Positions 1 through 8,813 are shown, numbered from the stretch's first letter. The stretch: DNA of 64,000 nt from Bacteroidota bacterium (GCA_947447375.1 CANFJB010000007.1:48280-112279), one strand, 5' to 3'. Numbers and translations: made by a program. The notes: generated by a model not told the origin, from the letters alone.

Positions 1-1127
1 GCCGTCCAAATGGGTAAAAAACCCGCTGCTTTATGGTGCAAAAGCATTGTGTTTACAATTCCGTCAATTTTTTCAGGAACAATTATTTGAAGTAATGGAA
101 ATGCACCTCTATAAATATCCCAAATCGATAGGGTAGAGTAGTATTCCTTGTTTGGCGCAACTGAAATAATATCATCTGCACCTCGATATTTTCCGTCTCT
201 ATCAGCAATATTTGAGGGTTGTAAAAGCAAATGATATAAAGAGGTATAGAAAATTTCTTTCTGTTTTTGACTTGCTTCGATGTCAATTCGGTTCAAATAT
301 TCATCCCAAATTTTTACGGCTATATTTCTAACATTATTAAAATCCCAATTAGGTATTTCTGAAGTTAAATTTAGTTTTGCGCCTTCAATACTCACAGTTG
401 ATAAAGCAATTTTGACTTGTAAGATGTTGCTTTTTGGCAATTCAAAATCTAAAATATATTTAGGTGCATTTTGCTTTTTTTCTTTTGGAAGTTCTTTTGA
501 TGCATAAAAAGGAGTTTCGAAATTAATCGTAAAGAAATACTTTTTGGTTACCCAACCTTTGGTTTTACAATAACCTGAAATGGTAGTTGGATTTTCAATT
601 TTAATATCACTTTCTAATACCAAACTGTCATTTAAAAATTGAATCCCGTGTTGAAAATCCAATAATAATTTACCTTTTGAATCAGGAAAAGTATATTTAT
701 GAAAAGCCACTCTTTCAGAACAAGTGAGTTCGACTTTTACGTCGTCTTTTTTCAATAATGAATAATAACCCACAGAAGCTGTTTCTGAGTTTTTGAAGTA
801 ACTATTTTTAAGTTTTGACTTATTTTCATTATAGGGTAATAATAGAATATTTCCCATTTCACCAATTCCAGTTCCACTAAAACGCATTTGCGAAAAGCCT
901 AGAAGAAGCGTGTCTTTAAATTGATATCCGCTGGTGTGATTCCAACCTTCCACACTATTATCAGGGCCAGGCTGAACCATTCCAAAAGGCAATGAAGGTC
1001 CAGGAAATGTATGTCCAGTCCCATCAGTTCCGATGAAAGTGTTTACAAATTTTGAATTACTTTGTGCAATAATTGGATTAAATCCAATGATAGAAAGTAC
1101 TACAATTATTATTTTCTTTATTTCCAT
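1..1127 (-). CDS. GH92 alpha-1,2-mannosidase family glycoside hydrolase (5' part; runs off the left edge)
   Basis: Not in the ORF track; translated by hand from ATG at 1127. It reads MEIKKIIIVVLSIIGFNPIIAQ (signal peptide) then FVNTFIGTDGTGHTFPGPSLPFGMVQPGPD...GYQFKD...GFSQMRFSGTG. The same frame near the left edge reads YSTLSIWDIYRGAFPLL. These are hallmark GH92 motifs. Confidence 0.9.
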   Translation of the reverse strand, partial: MEIKKIIIVVLSIIGFNPIIAQSNSKFVNTFIGTDGTGHTFPGPSLPFGMVQPGPDNSVEGWNHTSGYQFKDTLLLGFSQMRFSGTGIGEMGNILLLPYNENKSKLKNSYFKNSETASVGYYSLLKKDDVKVELTCSERVAFHKYTFPDSKGKLLLDFQHGIQFLNDSLVLESDIKIENPTTISGYCKTKGWVTKKYFFTINFETPFYASKELPKEKKQNAPKYILDFELPKSNILQVKIALSTVSIEGAKLNLTSEIPNWDFNNVRNIAVKIWDEYLNRIDIEASQKQKEIFYTSLYHLLLQPSNIADRDGKYRGADDIISVAPNKEYYSTLSIWDIYRGAFPLLQIIVPEKIDGIVNTMLLHHKAAGFLPIWT

Positions 1128-2482
1128 AATGAATCCATTTGTTCCAAACTTTTATTTTTGGTTTCTGGTACTTTTCTCCAAACAAATAGTAAAGATAGAA
1201 GACATATTATTGAAAACAAATAAAAAGGAAATGCCCCATTAAAATGTGTTTTTAACCATTGATTTTCGACTAAACTTGGAAAAACTTGAGTCACTACAAA
1301 ATTGGCAACCCATTGAATAAATACGCTAATTGCCAACGCCAAACTTCTAATTTTATTTGGAAAAATTTCTGATAATAATACCCACACAATTGGTCCCCAA
1401 GAAATACTAAATGAAGCCATGAATAGTAGTAAAAAGGGCAAAACCCAATTACCGATTGCCTCAAAATAAATAAACGATCCAACTGCAGCTAATGCAATTG
1501 TCATTCCAATTGAACCAATATAAAGCAACGGTTTTCTTCCCATTTTGTCCACAAAACGAATAGCCAACAAAGTAAAAATTAAGTTTACAACTCCTAAAAT
1601 GCTTGTTTCTAGCAAGGAAACATCTGTTGAACTTCCTAAGCTTTTAAATATCTCAGGGGCATAATATAAAATGGCATTAATACCTGTTAGTTGTTGTAAA
1701 ACAGAAAGACCAATTCCAACGAAAAGTGCTTTTTTAAACATTGGATTAACCAAATTTTTCCATTGGTTTACTTCTTTAACATTGATTGAATTTTCAATTT
1801 CTTCTTGAACTTGAAGTACTTCTTCAGGTGAATTTATTTTCTCTAATACGCCAACCGCTTCTGCAGTTTTTCCTTTTTGAAACAACCATCTAGGGCTTTC
1901 CGGAATTAGAAATATAAATATTAAAAATAGTATTGACGGGATAATTTCAGATCCAAACATCCAACGCCAACCAATATTCAAATTCCAGGCAGAATCGCCT
2001 TGAAGCGCAATAAAATAGTTTACAAAATAGACAACCACAATTCCAATAACAATTGCCAATTGATAGTTTCCTACTAAAGCTCCACGTCTTTTTGGAGGTG
2101 CAATTTCAGCGATATACATTGGGACAACCATAGATGCAATTCCCACACCAATTCCACCTATAATTCGGAATAGTACAAACATTGAAAAGGAAATGGGTAG
2201 GGCAGTACCAACGGAATTTAGAATAAATAAAATTGCTGTAATCAACATGGTGACTTTTCTTCCAAATCGATTACTATAATAATCAGAGATAAATGCACCA
2301 ATAATACAACCAACTAATGCGCTTGATATTGCCCAACCAGTTTCTATAGGTGTTAAATGAAAATACTGAGTTAAATTGCCAATTGCGCCCGAAATTACGG
2401 CTGTATCATAACCAAATAATAAACCTCCAAGTGCAGCGCTCAAAGCGATAAATAATATGTAATTCTTTTTCTTATTTTCCAT
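1118..2482 (-). CDS. Sugar porter family MFS transporter (XylE/GalP-like)
   Basis: GGLLFGYDTAVISGA, DYYSNRFGRK, PESPRWL, QQLTGIN, DKMGRK and PETK motifs; about 12 TMs. The likely start is ATG 2482 (MENKKK) rather than 2533. Confidence 0.93.
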   Translation of the reverse strand: MENKKKNYILFIALSAALGGLLFGYDTAVISGAIGNLTQYFHLTPIETGWAISSALVGCIIGAFISDYYSNRFGRKVTMLITAILFILNSVGTALPISFSMFVLFRIIGGIGVGIASMVVPMYIAEIAPPKRRGALVGNYQLAIVIGIVVVYFVNYFIALQGDSAWNLNIGWRWMFGSEIIPSILFLIFIFLIPESPRWLFQKGKTAEAVGVLEKINSPEEVLQVQEEIENSINVKEVNQWKNLVNPMFKKALFVGIGLSVLQQLTGINAILYYAPEIFKSLGSSTDVSLLETSILGVVNLIFTLLAIRFVDKMGRKPLLYIGSIGMTIALAAVGSFIYFEAIGNWVLPFLLLFMASFSISWGPIVWVLLSEIFPNKIRSLALAISVFIQWVANFVVTQVFPSLVENQWLKTHFNGAFPFYLFSIICLLSLLFVWRKVPETKNKSLEQMDSLWK

Positions 2483-2484
2483 TA

Positions 2485-3315
2485 TTATAGATTTTGTTGT
2501 AAATATTTTTTCATCTGTAGGTTGGTTTCCCATTGATTTGAAAGTGGTTTTTTAGTAAATGGTTCTTCGGGCATGTAGGGAAAAGGGCCAAATTCAGGGG
2601 TTATCGTAATTTGATTGCAATTTCTTTTTTTATGATATTCTATAATTTCTTTCCACCAATTTAAATACCTATCAAGGTAAGATTCCCATTCTGGTGCAAA
2701 TGGGTTGTTTACTTGTGGGCTTTGTTCAAACCCAATTCTGGCGTGTAGGTGTTTTATTTTAGGATAAATCTTCTTCAATAATTCTTTTTGATCCTCCAAA
2801 TTGCTTTCTGAAACTACACAGAAATGAGAAAAATCGGCTACTAAACTTAATTTTGGAAATAATTCTAAATACTGATGTAGGGTTTTCAAATGAAATGAAA
2901 ATCTCCCGCGATGAATTTCATGAACTATCGGAACATCGTATTTTTTGGATATAATTTCAGTCATTTCGATGATCTTACAGTTATCACTAAAATCATAATA
3001 ATCTTTTCCGGTATGAGAATTAATAAAATCAGGTTTTAATTTTGCTAAAAATTCTAGTCTTTCAGTAATTCTAATACTATATTCTTTTACCGACTCTGTT
3101 TTATTTGATAAAACTTGTTGGGCAATGAAAATGAAATTAGCATTAATTGTAGCTCTAATATTTTCTATTTCAGCTGTGAATTCATCAATAAATTCAGTGT
3201 TATCAGGGAAATTAATTTCAACCCCATCATAACCATTCGAAATCACATTCGATAGAAATTCTTTAGCAGATTGATTTTCGCAACCCCAAAAAGTACTTAT
3301 ATATTTGATATTCAT
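2485..3315 (-). CDS. Sugar phosphate isomerase/epimerase (xylose-isomerase-like TIM barrel)
   Basis: GYDGVEIN, HTGKD, HEIHRGR, DFSH, HLHAR and PEFG metal-ligand pattern. Confidence 0.8.
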   Translation of the reverse strand: MNIKYISTFWGCENQSAKEFLSNVISNGYDGVEINFPDNTEFIDEFTAEIENIRATINANFIFIAQQVLSNKTESVKEYSIRITERLEFLAKLKPDFINSHTGKDYYDFSDNCKIIEMTEIISKKYDVPIVHEIHRGRFSFHLKTLHQYLELFPKLSLVADFSHFCVVSESNLEDQKELLKKIYPKIKHLHARIGFEQSPQVNNPFAPEWESYLDRYLNWWKEIIEYHKKRNCNQITITPEFGPFPYMPEEPFTKKPLSNQWETNLQMKKYLQQNL

Positions 3316-3316
3316 A

Positions 3317-4144
3317 TTATTTAGAATATAAAACAGGATTAATAGGAGAGTTAATTATTTCTCCAATTTTAGCTCCAGGACACCAAGTATTCCAATCATG
3401 AATTTGGTTTTTATTATCGGGATTTTTCAAAAGCATGTCTTTGTCCATGTATATAATAGTCATCACTTTTCTCATTTCGTTAGTCACATTTGCACCAGCA
3501 CGGTGAAAAACCCAACCTGAATGAAAACTTATTTCACCTAAATCAAAGGCTTCAATTACATGTTTGAAATCAGTTACACGCAATTTCTTTTGAATAACTT
3601 CTTCACTTTCATCACCAATTTCTAATTCTCGACCTTCCACAATAGTGTGACTTCCTGCACTGAATTCCAACGGCCCCATTTCCAAAGGCGTTTCTTGAAG
3701 TGGCATCCAAGCGGTAATAGTTTTGTCTGTTTCTAATGGCCAGTAATATTGATCGGCATGCCAAGGAGTGATTCCGCCGCCGCCTTCTTTAAATAAAGCT
3801 TGGTCGTGGTACAATCGAACGCCGTTGACTTCCATTAAATCAGATGCAATTTTTGCTATTCGTTTACTGAAAATTAATTCTTTTACAATTGGATTTTCTG
3901 TCCATAAATTGAATAATTGGAGAAATGCTTTTCCGTAAGTTGTTCGGTCTTCCAATGCCGTTTGCTCTTGGTTCATTTCTTCAACTTGTTTTGAAATTGC
4001 AGCATTAAAAAACTGAATCGTTTCTGGATTTAAAACTTCTTTTAATTTTATAAATCTATTTTTTTGATAGAAGTCAATTTGTTCTTGACTTAATGAATAA
4101 GGTTTATTTAGAAATTCTGATATTGATTTAGAAAGTGTTTGCAT
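3317..4144 (-). CDS. Phytanoyl-CoA dioxygenase (PhyH) family Fe(II)/2-oxoglutarate dioxygenase
   Basis: TPWHADQYYW (HxD), distal FHRAGAN His, following Arg in MRKVMT, TAWMPL..T....GPL. Confidence 0.88.
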   Translation of the reverse strand: MQTLSKSISEFLNKPYSLSQEQIDFYQKNRFIKLKEVLNPETIQFFNAAISKQVEEMNQEQTALEDRTTYGKAFLQLFNLWTENPIVKELIFSKRIAKIASDLMEVNGVRLYHDQALFKEGGGGITPWHADQYYWPLETDKTITAWMPLQETPLEMGPLEFSAGSHTIVEGRELEIGDESEEVIQKKLRVTDFKHVIEAFDLGEISFHSGWVFHRAGANVTNEMRKVMTIIYMDKDMLLKNPDNKNQIHDWNTWCPGAKIGEIINSPINPVLYSK

Positions 4145-4285
4145 TGTTATTAATTTAAATAATAGTAATTATCAATTTCAAAATTATCGATTTGAATGAT
4201 AAACAATTAACATTAATTTGTTCAATTGTAACACTATATTGAATTATTTTATTTACTTTTCAGATTTAAAAGTTAATTTGTTGTT

Positions 4286-5128
4286 ATGAAAGCCATATTA
4301 GAAGACATTAAAACCAACCAAGGAATATCCAGTTTTCATGCATTTCGATATCAAGTTCCCTATTTTCAGTTCAAATGGCATTATCATCCAGAATTTGAAT
4401 TGACTTATATAGTTAAAGGAAATGGTTATCGAATCGTGGGTAATTCTTATGAACCTTTTGCTGAGGGTGATTTAGTTTTATTAGGTAGTAATTTACCACA
4501 TACTTGGTCTGGAAAAGCGGATGGTGATGTTAATTCAGATGCTATTGTAATTCAGTTTTCTAGTGAATTCATTTTACCATTTTTAGAATTGAATGAAAGT
4601 CTATTAATAAAGAATATGCTTGACAGTTCGCTTCGAGGTATTAATTTCGAACCTGATGAACAGTTAGTTACAAAAATTATTGAGATAACTGAGACTAATG
4701 GCGTAGAACGTATTTTGAAGTTGATTTCAATTTTAGATATTTTATCAAAAAAACAGATTAAATTGATTGCTCCAAATACTTTTCACAATATTGTTTCCAA
4801 GAAAAGTGAAGTTCGTATTAATAAAGTTTGTTTATTTATTCAAAATAATTTTCAGAATAAAATCTACTTGAAAGAGGTTGCCGACTTAATTTATTTGACT
4901 GAAAGCAACTTCTGTAAATTTTTTAAAAAAGCAACTGGGAAAACCTATTCAGATTATGTAAATGAAATACGTATAAACGAAGCCAGTCGATTGTTAATTC
5001 AGTCGGACAGAACAATTAGTCAAATTTCTTTTGAATGTGGATTTGAAACATTGAGTTACTTTAATAGAGTCTTTTTATATAAAAAAGGAATAACTCCATC
5101 GGTTTATAGGAAAAGTAGTGCTGTATGA
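4286..5128 (+). CDS. AraC family transcriptional regulator (cupin sensor + HTH)
   Basis: WHYHPEFEL cupin; C-terminal LKEVADLIYLTESNFCKFFKKATG...CGFETLSYFNRVF; divergent from the PhyH operon. Confidence 0.95.
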   Translation: MKAILEDIKTNQGISSFHAFRYQVPYFQFKWHYHPEFELTYIVKGNGYRIVGNSYEPFAEGDLVLLGSNLPHTWSGKADGDVNSDAIVIQFSSEFILPFLELNESLLIKNMLDSSLRGINFEPDEQLVTKIIEITETNGVERILKLISILDILSKKQIKLIAPNTFHNIVSKKSEVRINKVCLFIQNNFQNKIYLKEVADLIYLTESNFCKFFKKATGKTYSDYVNEIRINEASRLLIQSDRTISQISFECGFETLSYFNRVFLYKKGITPSVYRKSSAV

Positions 5129-5327: not shown

Positions 5328-8300
5328 ATGAAAAAAAAATATCTAATTATTTGTTTTTTTATTTCCTTTTTTTCGGTTTCAGCTCAACAAATTTCATTAT
5401 TGAACTCAGATTATCCAGGTGCTAATGGGACCTACACAATAGATAATAATAGCAATGCTAATTATGTTAACTTTATCAATGATGTAGATTCCTCCTATAG
5501 CTTATCTGGTAACAATAACGGTTCAGGTAATTGGGATTGGAATTTTAATTATTATGGTGGTTATTCTACATATTTAATGGCTTATGGTTTTAGCTTCTCA
5601 TCAGACCCTTCAAATATAAATTGGATAATTTTTGAAGAATATGATTTTGATAATAATACTCAAACTAATTACACACCACCAACTGTAACTTTAACAACTC
5701 CTCTTTTAACAACAACTACAGCTAATACAATAACATGTTTTGCGGCAACTTTGGGCGGAGAAGTAACTAATGAAGGTGCTACATCTTTAACTTCTCGAGG
5801 AATTAACTGGGGACTGTCTGCTGGAAATCTAAATAACACAATACAGAATGGTTCAGGAATAGGAACTTTCGATGAAATATTATCTGGTTTAACTCCTAAT
5901 ACTACTTATTATTTTAGGGCTTTTGCTACTAATTCTAATGGCACATCTTATGGTAGTATTGAAAATTTTCAAACTTTAATAGCAATACCTGTTGTAACAA
6001 CTTCTGCAGAAAGTTCAATATCTTATAATGGTGCTACTTTGGGTGGAGAAGTGACTAGTGAAGGTGCTTCACAGGTTACTTCTCGAGGAGTAGTATGGGG
6101 ATTAACTTCAAATAATTTAAACAATACAATCCAAATAGGATCTGGTTCAGGAACATTCAGTCAATCTTTTACTGATTTAAGTCCAGGATCAACTTGTTAT
6201 TTCAGGACTTATGCCTTGAATTCCTATGGAACTGCCTATGGTGAAATACTTAGTTTTAAAACTTTACATGATAATTATGATATATTAGTAGTTTCCGGTG
6301 GTGGTAGTGGAGGAGCAGGTTATGGTGGCGGCGGCGGCGGCGGTGCGGTTAAATACTTTTTTAATCAATCTGTTTCTGGTAATACAGCAGTAACAGTTGG
6401 TGCAGGTGGGGCTGCAGTAAGAATCATTTCATCTGGTTCGGAAATTGCAAATCCAGGAGAAAGTTCCTCTTTTGGTAATTTAGTTGCTACCTCAAGTTCC
6501 GCAGCTAATGCTCCAAATCCAAATGGAGGAGGAGGAGGAGGTTCTGGAGGAGGTTCTGGAGGTTCTTTCGGAAGTGCATCAGGTGGAACTGCAGTATCAG
6601 GAATGGGATATAATGGTGGAAATTCTCAAGGGAATGGTGTAAATTTCTGGTCAGTTAATGGTGGAGGAGGTGGTGGTGCCGGTGCTTCTGGTAGCTTGGG
6701 TACAGGAGGAAATGGTGGGGCAGGTGGAGCTGGTATAGCCAATAGCATTACAGGAACTTCTGTTTATTATGGTGGTGGTGGTGGTGGTGGAGTAGTTCAT
6801 AATGCAACTAGAGGTGGAGCAGGAGGAATTGGGGGTGGTGGCGCCGGTTCAAAAGGAGATGTTTCTGCAACTAATGGAACTGCTAATACAGGCGGTGGCG
6901 GCGGTGGATTCGGAAGCATGAATGCCAGTCAGAGTAATAATCCCTCTGGTGCAGGAGGTTCAGGAATTGTTATAGTTAGATATTTAGGATCGACTATTCG
7001 AGCTACAGGAGGAACAATTACACAAGTTAATGGTTATACAATACATAAATTTACCAGTAGTGGTACTTTTTCATTATCGAATTGTACTAATCCTACTAGT
7101 GGAGGTACAATTGCCAATTCTCAAAGTGGTGCAACTCCTTTTAATCCCTCTGCTTTCACAAGTAGTGTAGCTGCAACCGGAGAGACAGGTACATTAGAAT
7201 ACAAATGGCAATCATCAACCACTAGTAACAGTAGCGGTTTTAGTGATATTGCAAGTAGTAATGCGAGTACTTATGATGCGGGTTCATTATCTCAAACTAC
7301 TTGGTTCAAAAGATTAGCTAGAGTTGATTGCCAAAGTGATTGGACTGGCGCAGCTGAAAGTAATGTATTAGAAGTTACGGTTAATTCATCGAACACTCTT
7401 GATAATTTAGGATTATCAAATAGTACTCCTGCTTCTGTGGCTTATTCTTTAAGAAAATTAAGTTCTAATTATTCTGGTCCTTTGGTTAGAATACTATTAG
7501 GCTCTTCCTATTATGATGTTTATCCAGATACGACAACCAATCAATTTTTCTCATTGAGTTCACCAGTATCTGCCTCTTATTCTAATTATAATGATGCTAA
7601 TACTGGTGCTACAGCTAATCTATTAAGTAGTTTAATAAGAGGTTCAACTTCAGCTAGTGTTGCTATTTGGTACGATCAAAGCGGAAACGGTATTGATGTA
7701 ATGACTTCATCTACAAATGGGCCAATAATTATTAACTCTGGAGCTATTCAAACTATGAATGGAAAACCAACTGTTTATTTTGCTAGTGTTAGTCAATCAA
7801 CTAGTCAACTAGTTTCATCGAATACTGTTGATTTTACTTCTCAAACAGCAGCTACAATAAATGCAGTTGTTCAAAATGTAGGTAGTATAAATTACATTTC
7901 AGGTGTAATATCAACAGGTTTAAATGGAGGTTGGGGTTTAAATTATGATCCTACTAATAGTATTAATGGTTATTGGATTGATGGATCTGGATGTACAAAT
8001 GCAAATTCTGGAGATACTAGCAATGTTAGTAAAATAGTAACTGGTATTATTGATATTGATCAAAATGCCAATACTTCTTCTATTTATGAAAATAACTCTT
8101 TGAAACAGACTAGAAATTCTATTTGTGGAATTAATCATACAACAACAGACAATATATGCATAGGTATTCGAGCAGCAAATGGTGGCGGAAGAATTTTCGA
8201 TGGATACCTATCTGAAGTAATGATATTTCCTTCCTATTTATCTAGTACAAATAGAAACTCCCTTGAGAACAATCAAAATGTTACTTATTTTTCGCCATCT

Positions 8301-8813
8301 ATTTCTATTACATCTAGCGATACAGATAACAGCATTTGCTTAGGCGATTCAGTTACCTTCACAGCATCTTCTTATAATGTAAATAACCCAACGTATCAAT
8401 GGTATTTAAATGGAAACGCAATAAATGGAGCAACTGCTTCCGCTTTTTCATCAACTACTTTAGCAAATAATGATACAATATATGTTGTTATGGATGTTTC
8501 AGGTACGCCTTTAGCAAGTAACTCTATAAGTACTACAGTTTCAAATAGTTCTTTAGTAACCTCTGCTATAAAATTATCAACTGGTGCTACAACAGTAACA
8601 TCATTAACAAGTAATTTAACATGGGCTATTGATAATACTTTAAATGATGATAATGCTTTGTTTCAAATTACTTCTGGACATGTATTGAGTTTTAGAAGTG
8701 CTAAAAATTATGTAAATGGTCAAAGTAACACTTATTCTGTATCTGCTACATCAGGTTGTACAACAAAAAATATAACGGTAACTATTAGTCCTTTTTGTGG
8801 TAATTGGAATTAA
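5328..8813 (+). CDS. Large Sec-exported mosaic protein (2x FN3-like, glycine-rich domain, Ig/PKD-like, LamG/ArabFuran-catalytic-like, partial cadherin-like)
   Basis: Signal peptide; two GGEVT.EGA...SRG..WG...L.P..T.YFR.YA.NS.GT.YG modules; poly-Gly block ending TIHKFTSSGTF; SVAYSLRKL...WYDQSGNG domain. No recognisable T9SS CTD. Confidence 0.75.
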   Translation: MKKKYLIICFFISFFSVSAQQISLLNSDYPGANGTYTIDNNSNANYVNFINDVDSSYSLSGNNNGSGNWDWNFNYYGGYSTYLMAYGFSFSSDPSNINWIIFEEYDFDNNTQTNYTPPTVTLTTPLLTTTTANTITCFAATLGGEVTNEGATSLTSRGINWGLSAGNLNNTIQNGSGIGTFDEILSGLTPNTTYYFRAFATNSNGTSYGSIENFQTLIAIPVVTTSAESSISYNGATLGGEVTSEGASQVTSRGVVWGLTSNNLNNTIQIGSGSGTFSQSFTDLSPGSTCYFRTYALNSYGTAYGEILSFKTLHDNYDILVVSGGGSGGAGYGGGGGGGAVKYFFNQSVSGNTAVTVGAGGAAVRIISSGSEIANPGESSSFGNLVATSSSAANAPNPNGGGGGGSGGGSGGSFGSASGGTAVSGMGYNGGNSQGNGVNFWSVNGGGGGGAGASGSLGTGGNGGAGGAGIANSITGTSVYYGGGGGGGVVHNATRGGAGGIGGGGAGSKGDVSATNGTANTGGGGGGFGSMNASQSNNPSGAGGSGIVIVRYLGSTIRATGGTITQVNGYTIHKFTSSGTFSLSNCTNPTSGGTIANSQSGATPFNPSAFTSSVAATGETGTLEYKWQSSTTSNSSGFSDIASSNASTYDAGSLSQTTWFKRLARVDCQSDWTGAAESNVLEVTVNSSNTLDNLGLSNSTPASVAYSLRKLSSNYSGPLVRILLGSSYYDVYPDTTTNQFFSLSSPVSASYSNYNDANTGATANLLSSLIRGSTSASVAIWYDQSGNGIDVMTSSTNGPIIINSGAIQTMNGKPTVYFASVSQSTSQLVSSNTVDFTSQTAATINAVVQNVGSINYISGVISTGLNGGWGLNYDPTNSINGYWIDGSGCTNANSGDTSNVSKIVTGIIDIDQNANTSSIYENNSLKQTRNSICGINHTTTDNICIGIRAANGGGRIFDGYLSEVMIFPSYLSSTNRNSLENNQNVTYFSPSISITSSDTDNSICLGDSVTFTASSYNVNNPTYQWYLNGNAINGATASAFSSTTLANNDTIYVVMDVSGTPLASNSISTTVSNSSLVTSAIKLSTGATTVTSLTSNLTWAIDNTLNDDNALFQITSGHVLSFRSAKNYVNGQSNTYSVSATSGCTTKNITVTISPFCGNWN
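5676..6266 (+). repeat. Tandem duplication of an FN3-like module inside the 1161-aa CDS
   Basis: The two units are similar at DNA level, e.g. actttgggcggagaagtaactaatgaaggtgct...acttctcgagga vs actttgggtggagaagtgactagtgaaggtgct...acttctcgagga; boundaries approximate. Confidence 0.8.

Follow-up and report, generated by a model that had tools for sequence, protein, structure and literature searches.

Where algal, plant or bacterial glycans carry O-methylated sugars, their degradation is probably hampered, and in the literature that we found the sole route to a free methylated monosaccharide is a marine cytochrome P450 system for 6-O-methyl-galactose, the P450 of which we take to be classed as CYP236A. 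In Formosa agariphila and Zobellia galactanivorans this P450 is encoded in a cluster that lies among glycoside hydrolases (GHs) and sulfatases, has a divergent AraC gene and has the oxygenase as its first gene, and the step that it catalyzes is a cytoplasmic one on an imported monosaccharide (PMC10033563, PMC9400963). Here we analyze a 64,000-nucleotide stretch of a Bacteroidota genome (GCA_947447375.1, CANFJB010000007.1:48280-112279; the window in what follows), the first 5.1 kb of which carry five genes: an AraC-family regulator on the plus strand and, on the minus strand, a PhyH-family Fe(II)/2-oxoglutarate (2OG) dioxygenase, a TIM-barrel enzyme, a sugar porter and a glycosidase of family GH92. 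With moderate confidence, and on the strength of sequence comparisons, we suggest that this is an AraC-controlled, SusC/D-less operon for the salvage of an O-methylated hexose, in which PhyH would be the cytoplasmic methoxy-sugar demethylase. We are considerably more confident of a broader statement, that the operon serves the catabolism of some modified sugar and that one of its steps is catalyzed by an oxygenase in the cytoplasm.

Two aspects of the known systems bear directly on this proposal. In the P450 cluster for 6-O-methyl-D-galactose demethylation, the alcohol dehydrogenases (ADHs) FoADH and ZoADH (8H2A and 8H2B) sit with the P450, its two redox partners and an esterase; they mainly reduce aldehydes and prefer aromatic ones, and knockout of ZoADH leads to poor growth on 6-O-methyl-D-galactose and normal growth on galactose (PMC10033563). 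As for the dioxygenase, FJS (a bacterial member of PF05721), human PHYHD1 and several relatives demethylate 2'-O-methyl nucleosides with release of formaldehyde, an activity that the authors call widespread in the family (PMC12709175, 2025). PhyH-type O-demethylation of a sugar methoxy group is thus established chemistry. FJS and PHYHD1 belong to the same Pfam family as the PhyH of the window and share with it the proposed chemistry, hydroxylation of a methoxy group and release of formaldehyde; unlike it, they act on nucleosides, and no glycosidase or porter context has been described for them. In the literature, which we covered incompletely, we found no report of a 2OG enzyme that demethylates free O-methyl hexoses.

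Results and discussion

The window corresponds to positions 48280-112279 of contig C7 of the source genome (G000; 2.39 Mb, about 32% GC), and the closest named relatives at the AraC-PhyH locus are freshwater Flavobacterium genomes; we take the host for a small freshwater Flavobacterium. The gene for PhyH (275 aa; 3317-4144, minus strand; PF05721, E = 5e-20) is separated by 1 nt from that for a xylose-isomerase-like TIM-barrel protein (TIM hereafter; 276 aa; 2485-3315, minus strand; PF01261, 32 bits, barely above the cut-off). The stop codon of TIM lies 2 nt before the start of a XylE-like sugar porter of the major facilitator superfamily (1118-2533, minus strand; TIGR00879), if Met18 of the longest open reading frame (ORF), at 2482, is taken as the porter start, and the reading frames of the porter and GH92 overlap by 10 nt. 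GH92 (1(3)-1127, minus strand; Glyco_hydro_92N and Glyco_hydro_92) runs off the left edge of the window, which holds its N-terminal 375 aa; read in the genome beyond that edge (G000:C7:47253-49406), the full protein has 717 aa, with N-terminal and catalytic domains scoring 513 and 194 bits. The AraC gene (4286-5128, plus strand) is divergent from the operon. Gene calls, Pfam and TIGR matches and the short junctions confirm the layout described in an earlier, sequence-only reading of the window, namely an AraC gene divergent from a tightly coupled PhyH-TIM-porter-GH92 series. The same reading left room for SusC/D beyond the left edge. What lies there instead, 8 nt past GH92, is the gene for a GH127-like glycosidase of 639 aa; neither SusC nor SusD was found over the 18 kb that precede the window or within its first 12 kb, and the adjacent SusC/SusD pair that strictly defines a polysaccharide utilization locus is absent from the operon.

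The porter scores above the cut-off of TIGR00879 (432 bits against 238) and below that of the XylE equivalog NF007484 (540 bits against 608). The nearest solved relative of GH92 is B035DRAFT_03340 (7ZGM; E = 1.7e-194), an alpha-1,3-mannosidase that accepts plant N-glycans with their xylose decoration, and the next closest, 6F8Z, is an alpha-1,3-mannosidase named BT3130 (PMC9522356). The GH127-like protein, of the Cys/Zn beta-L-arabinofuranosidase type, matches PF07944 (DUF1680) with 68 bits, has no match in NCBIfam and is distant from the solved GH127 enzymes (E = 4e-8); it may belong to GH127 or to a sister family. Its E-Y-C and C-C motifs align with the E-T-C and C-C of 4QJY and 6EX6, and the zinc/nucleophile motifs Glu-x-Cys and Cys-Cys are therefore kept. 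Signal peptides are found at the N-termini of GH92 and the GH127-like protein and not at those of PhyH and TIM, indicating two periplasmic glycosidases, an inner-membrane importer of the monosaccharide type and two cytoplasmic enzymes. The idea of an AraC-linked sugar operon is in these respects supported.

Related loci were sought with an alignment of 13 PhyH sequences, and neighbors were counted from -6 to +7 genes around PhyH in the 78 loci obtained. The complete arrangement of the window also occurs in L020, L021, L022 (from the cultured Flavobacterium macrobrachii an-8, whose PhyH is 88% identical) and L024; because the same gene order is found in other genomes, the layout is not a product of chance. 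Across all loci the constant unit is AraC plus PhyH, with AraC present in 48 of the 78 and directly upstream and divergent in 46. TIM occurs in 29 loci, in 28 of them as the very next gene, and at least one recognized glycan gene in 56, so that the PhyH/TIM pair is kept together with sugar genes; the failure of such conservation, which would have refuted the earlier reading, was thus not observed. GH92, which had been put forward as the sugar-releasing partner, is indeed present here and exported, but it is not the usual partner: it is found in 11 loci, against 35 with GH13 alpha-glucan enzymes (of three kinds) and 24 with the GH127-like enzyme. SusC is found in 12 loci and the sugar porter in seven; sulfatases appear in a few, and some of the GH13 partners lie within SusC/D/E starch-type loci.

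The evidence that ties PhyH to demethylation comes from seven of the 78 loci, in which it is followed not by TIM but by a 368-aa Zn-dependent ADH and an esterase of about 264 aa. The Zn-ADH matches FoADH (8H2A; E = 1e-177) and ZoADH (8H2B; E = 1e-161), whereas class III ADHs match at only about 1e-55; the nearest solved relatives of the esterase are feruloyl esterases. Loci around such ADHs and P450s were then fetched from the family and phylum of the window. Ten of the 11 P450-containing loci, all of Flavobacteriaceae, hold AraC, P450, 2Fe-2S ferredoxin, ferredoxin reductase, ADH and esterase in varying order, and the PhyH version of the cluster consists of AraC, PhyH, ADH and esterase, the ADHs of the two types being 64-69% and the esterases 44-53% identical. 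No P450 was found in the 78 PhyH loci and no TIM in the P450 loci. Since PhyH is followed by the same ADH-esterase pair, a single Fe/2OG protein fills the slot of the three-protein P450 system, and, as the pair travels with oxygenases of different cosubstrates, recycling of NADH for the P450 is unlikely to be its role. In a quick tree, whose outgroups were too long-branched to root it, the PhyHs next to an ADH fall together in a single supported clade; this clade is nested among the orthologues of the PhyH of the window, to which its members are 65-72% identical. By tblastn the source genome has no P450, ferredoxin or reductase partner, FoADH-type ADH or matching esterase. P450 and PhyH were found together in none of 200 genera, a test that is powerless because only 0.35 such co-occurrences were expected.

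Two further candidate identities were rejected: the Zn-ADH is not an equivalog of a glutathione- or mycothiol-dependent formaldehyde dehydrogenase, and the esterase gave no fghA-like match at E <= 1e-10. FoADH-type ADH and esterase pairs were also seen with neither P450 nor PhyH beside them (L107, L109, L111); one of these loci has a GH2 gene between ADH and esterase, and in one a FAD-binding monooxygenase-like gene stands two genes away, beyond a peptidase S41 gene.

The operon of the window thus resembles the P450 cluster in its divergent AraC, which is of the same broad clade, in having the oxygenase as its first gene, in a setting among glycoside hydrolases and sulfatases and in a proposed cytoplasmic step on an imported monosaccharide, and in the seven related loci an ADH and an esterase of the kind found in the P450 cluster come right after the oxygenase. 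It differs in having a one-protein Fe/2OG PhyH without redox partners, so that 2-oxoglutarate would be used and not NADH; in having TIM in place of ADH and esterase, together with a porter of its own, GH92 and the GH127-like enzyme; and in its freshwater habitat, where porphyran is not expected.

PhyH covers the whole PF05721 profile (73 bits against a cut-off of 22), and its Fe triad and 2OG-binding arginine are intact: among 50 homologues of 29-53% identity, H129 is invariant and D131, H208, H214 and R225 are at least 90% conserved, the distal Fe ligand being H208 or H214. Its nearest solved relatives, all distant, are SnoK (E = 1e-13), SnoN, MysH and EvdO2, among which SnoK, SnoN and EvdO2 are sugar-modifying. 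EctD also ranks ahead of PHYHD1 (2OPW), whose match is marginal (E = 0.011, 18.6 bits) and does not make it a close relative. KanJ is not among the solved relatives up to E = 1. The earlier suggestion of a methylated or amino-substituted hexose accordingly stands in its first half, which is favored by the position of PhyH in the P450 slot and by the nucleoside precedent (PMC12709175), while nothing favors a KanJ-like reaction on an aminosugar.

Orthologues of 64-98% identity are present in at least 594 species-level genomes of Bacteroidota and span Flavobacteriales, Chitinophagales, Cytophagales, Saprospiraceae and Sphingobacteriales. The distribution is patchy: in the window's own family eight of 200 sampled genera have PhyH, with identities of 64-76% in seven of them and of 31% in the eighth, and it was not found in the sole other congener within that sample. 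Homologues of 40-55% identity exist in other phyla. By these comparisons the PhyH of the window is a separate, tightly conserved Bacteroidota subfamily, apart from FJS and PHYHD1. Typical Bacteroidota-like PhyH operons were also seen in metagenome-assembled genomes labeled Erythrobacter (L056) and Bifidobacteriaceae (L096), labels that probably reflect mis-binning rather than transfer.

The second enzyme of the operon, TIM, has no sequence match in the PDB, even by family profile, and none in NCBIfam. A single-sequence AlphaFold2 run gave a pLDDT of 45, and an alignment-based run a pLDDT of 92 and a pTM of 0.91. The model has the (beta/alpha)8 fold of the xylose-isomerase-like superfamily, with a Foldseek probability of 1.00 and VIA Z scores of 16-20 to many members, all tied. 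The structural matches include C-glycoside deglycosidases, ketose 3-epimerases, YcjR, IolE/IolI, AsbF, and a 3-keto-glycoside lyase and hydratase. Superfamily members such as YcjR, the D-tagatose/psicose 3-epimerases, DgpB/C, CarB/C, IolE/IolI and AsbF share the predicted fold with an rmsd of about 3 Å over 230-245 residues, but TIM is only 9-18% identical to them, and no subfamily stands out. Four residues that are invariant in 31 sequences, E133, D161, H191 and E241, lie at the predicted ends of the last four strands (5-8), the metal-binding place of the superfamily, and may correspond to its E-D-H-E metal site. On this evidence TIM is a divergent, cytoplasmic, putative metalloenzyme. To our knowledge, the xylose-isomerase-like TIM enzymes share the abstraction of a proton next to a carbonyl, and we take such a reaction of TIM as a lead, not as its function.

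The TIM family is small, with 1381 proteins at E <= 1e-5 among 5.8 billion. It was not found in 15 congeners, nor in three PhyH-bearing genomes that are 88-99% complete; as several PhyH-bearing genomes have no TIM, the enzyme is dispensable there, and the isomerization of the oxygenase product by TIM, as first proposed, becomes one possibility only. A sample of 400 genomes yielded more distant paralogues, of 30-38% identity, in 22. Such paralogues, frequently with an N-terminal extension, lie in 9-11 of 25 loci between a DUF1501 gene and the gene for a PSCyt1/DUF2231/LRR membrane protein (L116, L119, L121, L123, L129, L130, L132, L133, L137), and this arrangement of DUF1501, TIM paralogue and PSCyt1-type gene is a separate conserved triad.

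The regulator, with a cupin ligand domain at its N-terminus and a double helix-turn-helix at its C-terminus, scores 71 bits against HTH_18 and lies above the cut-offs of AraC_binding and Cupin_2. An alignment of nine AraC-PhyH intergenic regions revealed an invariant 16-nt block (core CAATATAGTG) and an invariant TAnnTTTG box, the consensus of the Bacteroidetes -7 promoter element. In the window the box reads TAATTTTG (4179-4186, minus strand) and precedes the PhyH start codon by 35 nt; the block, ATTCAATATAGTGTTA (4229-4244, minus strand), lies between the divergent genes and upstream of both, at a distance of 85 nt from the start codon of PhyH and of 42 nt from that of AraC. Twenty-two loci, which belong to several orders and all have AraC upstream, match at least 13 of its 16 positions, compared with a background of 3 in 390 windows, and the copy at 4229-4244 is the sole perfect one in the 2.39-Mb genome. 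We read it as the predicted operator of AraC, in what would be a one-operon regulon. A scan for sigma-70 promoters and terminators, models ill-suited to Bacteroidota, gave nothing above shuffled sequences. An exact search found the operator motif in none of the ADH-type or P450-type loci, so that a shared operator could not serve to link the kinds of cluster. In a FastTree phylogeny the AraCs of PhyH and P450 clusters interleave, far from two unrelated AraCs that were its only controls.

We suggest that the operon works as follows. Two periplasmic exo-glycosidases, GH92 of the alpha-1,3-mannosidase clade and the Cys/Zn GH127-like enzyme, would trim the sugar off an oligosaccharide, and the XylE-like proton symporter would bring the monosaccharide into the cell. 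There PhyH would hydroxylate the methoxy carbon to give a hemiacetal, which would split into the free sugar and formaldehyde, and the metal-dependent TIM may isomerize or epimerize the product, or another carbonyl intermediate, on its way to central metabolism. When the sugar is present, AraC at 4229-4244 would turn the operon on. Green-algal N-glycans carry O-methyl mannose, and we speculate that methyl-mannose from decorated mannose glycans would fit both the GH92 clade and the habitat. As the partners in other lineages are mostly GH13 enzymes, the PhyH family may act on more than one methyl hexose or be used for different glycans.

A number of observations weigh against demethylation of this kind. 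The partners vary (GH13, GH92, GH127-like), so that no single glycan is implied. The ADH and esterase have no assigned function in the study of the P450 cluster (PMC10033563), which makes the swap an argument by association. The PhyHs found with an ADH branch as a clade of their own, and the operator of the window is missing from their AraC loci. Plain demethylation needs no TIM enzyme. Finally, the hexulose-phosphate synthase of the ribulose monophosphate pathway, class III ADH and S-formylglutathione hydrolase were not found above cut-off in the source genome, missing matches that neither prove the absence of a formaldehyde route nor support the model.

The main rival to demethylation is a keto-sugar route. 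Following the logic of KanJ/KanK or AtsK, PhyH would hydroxylate the ring or C6 carbon that bears an O-methyl, amino or sulfate ester group; the substituent would leave, a keto- or aldehydo-sugar would stay, and TIM as an epimerase or isomerase, or the Zn-ADH as a reductase, would finish the conversion. In kanamycin biosynthesis KanJ/KanK carry out an oxidative deamination to a ketone and then its reduction; the likeness is that of a PhyH-family dioxygenase acting on a sugar with a second enzyme processing the product, and the differences are that KanJ/KanK is biosynthetic and that the operon of the window is without a reductase. TIM and the ADH-esterase pair are mutually exclusive after PhyH (29 against 7 loci, both in none), a pattern that counts for a keto-sugar route and fits a demethylase equally. 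The structural neighbors of TIM all work next to a carbonyl, among them YcjR, which is a 3-keto-glucoside epimerase, the ketose 3-epimerases, the C-glycoside deglycosidases, the 3-keto-glycoside lyase and hydratase, and IolE/IolI.

The pairing of the two enzymes is also recurrent. Two of the TIM paralogues are coupled directly to a different PhyH (L115:782-2301, plus strand, with an overlap of 4 nt; L138:1462-3044, minus strand) of 236-246 aa, whose nearest solved relative is EvdO2 (E = 3e-24), and no sugar genes lie within 1.5 kb of these pairs. As this PhyH is EvdO2-like, dioxygenase-TIM pairing arose at least twice, which hints that the product of the dioxygenase may be a carbonyl sugar; it favors the keto-sugar route over demethylation. 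FoADH and ZoADH being mainly aldehyde reducers (PMC10033563), the sulfatases in a few loci and the fact that no formaldehyde detoxification system was seen in the source genome point in the same direction. Both experimental precedents, the P450 on 6-O-methyl-galactose and FJS/PHYHD1, nevertheless yield formaldehyde and not methanol, the TIM-type loci have no reductase to complete the route, and several PhyH genomes are without TIM. We therefore regard a keto-sugar route as possible and, on balance, unlikely.

Demethylation could also be put more boldly, with the PhyH subfamily as a widespread P450-independent demethylase and TIM and ADH-esterase as interchangeable means of disposing of the same reactive by-product, formaldehyde or another aldehyde. 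This we hold to be very improbable; if it were true, the TIM family would be a new kind of formaldehyde- or aldehyde-handling enzyme, and the phenotype of the Zobellia ADH knockout would be explained.

The nearest solved relatives of PhyH, the sugar-acting SnoK (E = 1e-13), SnoN and EvdO2, would allow a radical epimerase or hydroxylase that inverts or hydroxylates a carbon of an unmodified rare sugar, with TIM completing an epimerization cascade. The similarity is remote, those enzymes act on glycosylated antibiotics in biosynthesis rather than in catabolism, and the replacement of the P450 in its slot would be left unexplained; such a function seems to us highly doubtful.

The substrate might, again, not be a free hexose at all but a 2'-O-methyl nucleoside, a methoxylated aromatic or an aglycone, regulation merely being shared with the glycosidases. 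Nucleoside demethylases exist in PF05721 (PMC12709175), FoADH and ZoADH prefer aromatic aldehydes (PMC10033563), the nearest solved relatives of the esterase are feruloyl esterases, and 22 of the 78 loci have no recognized glycan gene nearby, though many of these are on short contigs. Against this, the P450 counterpart acts on 6-O-methyl-galactose (PMC10033563), and the similarity of PhyH to PHYHD1 is marginal (E = 0.011). PhyH is moreover translationally packed with the porter and glycosidases here and in L020, L021, L022 and L024, and we consider a substrate of this kind very unlikely.

Very improbable, too, is that PhyH hydroxylates C1 of an anhydro-alditol such as 1,5-anhydro-mannitol or -glucitol, derived from alpha-glucan lyase products, to give mannose or glucose while TIM handles 1,5-anhydro-fructose. 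In its favor, no partner is more frequent than GH13 alpha-glucan genes (35 of 78 loci, with some of them in SusC/D/E starch-type loci), the ether C-H chemistry equals that for a methoxy group, and for Sinorhizobium the conversion of 1,5-anhydro-mannitol to mannose by an oxygenase has reportedly been proposed. Against it, the loci showed neither an alpha-glucan lyase (GH31) nor an anhydrofructose reductase, the tie to the ADH-esterase of a proven methyl-sugar cluster would be left unexplained, and the operon of the window has GH92 and the GH127-like enzyme, not GH13.

Several features of the surroundings were noted in addition. The GH127-like gene is followed, after 171 nt, by an HxlR-like gene and then by a convergent gene. 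The HxlR-family gene (L003:14678-15154, minus strand; G000:C7:44677-45153), on the same strand as the GH127-like gene, is retained in the closest relative (L020) and is not visible in L021 or L024; HxlR proper is a formaldehyde-responsive activator in Bacillus. About 7 kb to the left of the window, adjoining SUI1 and a polysaccharide deacetylase gene, lies a second, unrelated 2OG oxygenase (DIOX_N and 2OG-FeII_Oxy; L003:10536-11486, minus strand). Right after AraC, an ORF of 1161 aa (5328-8813, plus strand) has a Gly_rich_2 domain and a weak Ig_3 match under the Pfam cut-off, in a stretch with a GC fraction of 0.44 against about 0.30 and a strong positive GC skew; this glycine-rich ORF is not a conserved neighbor of the operon in the 78 loci, with a weak repeat-level match in L034 only. 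On another contig (G000:C3:131000-147400) the genome has an apparent starch-type locus with SusC/SusD, a neopullulanase-like GH13 and a 310-aa PF00756 esterase, and without PhyH.

Conclusions

Two things were already known: that a P450 demethylates methoxy sugars oxidatively, and that PhyH-type enzymes demethylate methyl-ribose. What is new here is a distinct, conserved Bacteroidota subfamily of PhyH in glycan loci, standing in for the P450, together with its pairing with the TIM family and the predicted operator. The analysis thereby defines a small uncharacterized TIM-barrel family and a candidate AraC operator. If PhyH is indeed a methoxy-sugar demethylase, it would offer a handle on the FoADH/ZoADH-esterase pair and a simpler demethylase, free of redox partners, for glycan analysis and biocatalysis. 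As a one-protein Fe/2OG alternative to the P450 system, present in at least 594 species genomes, it would widen the range of oxidative sugar demethylation to Bacteroidota of freshwater, soil and sea.

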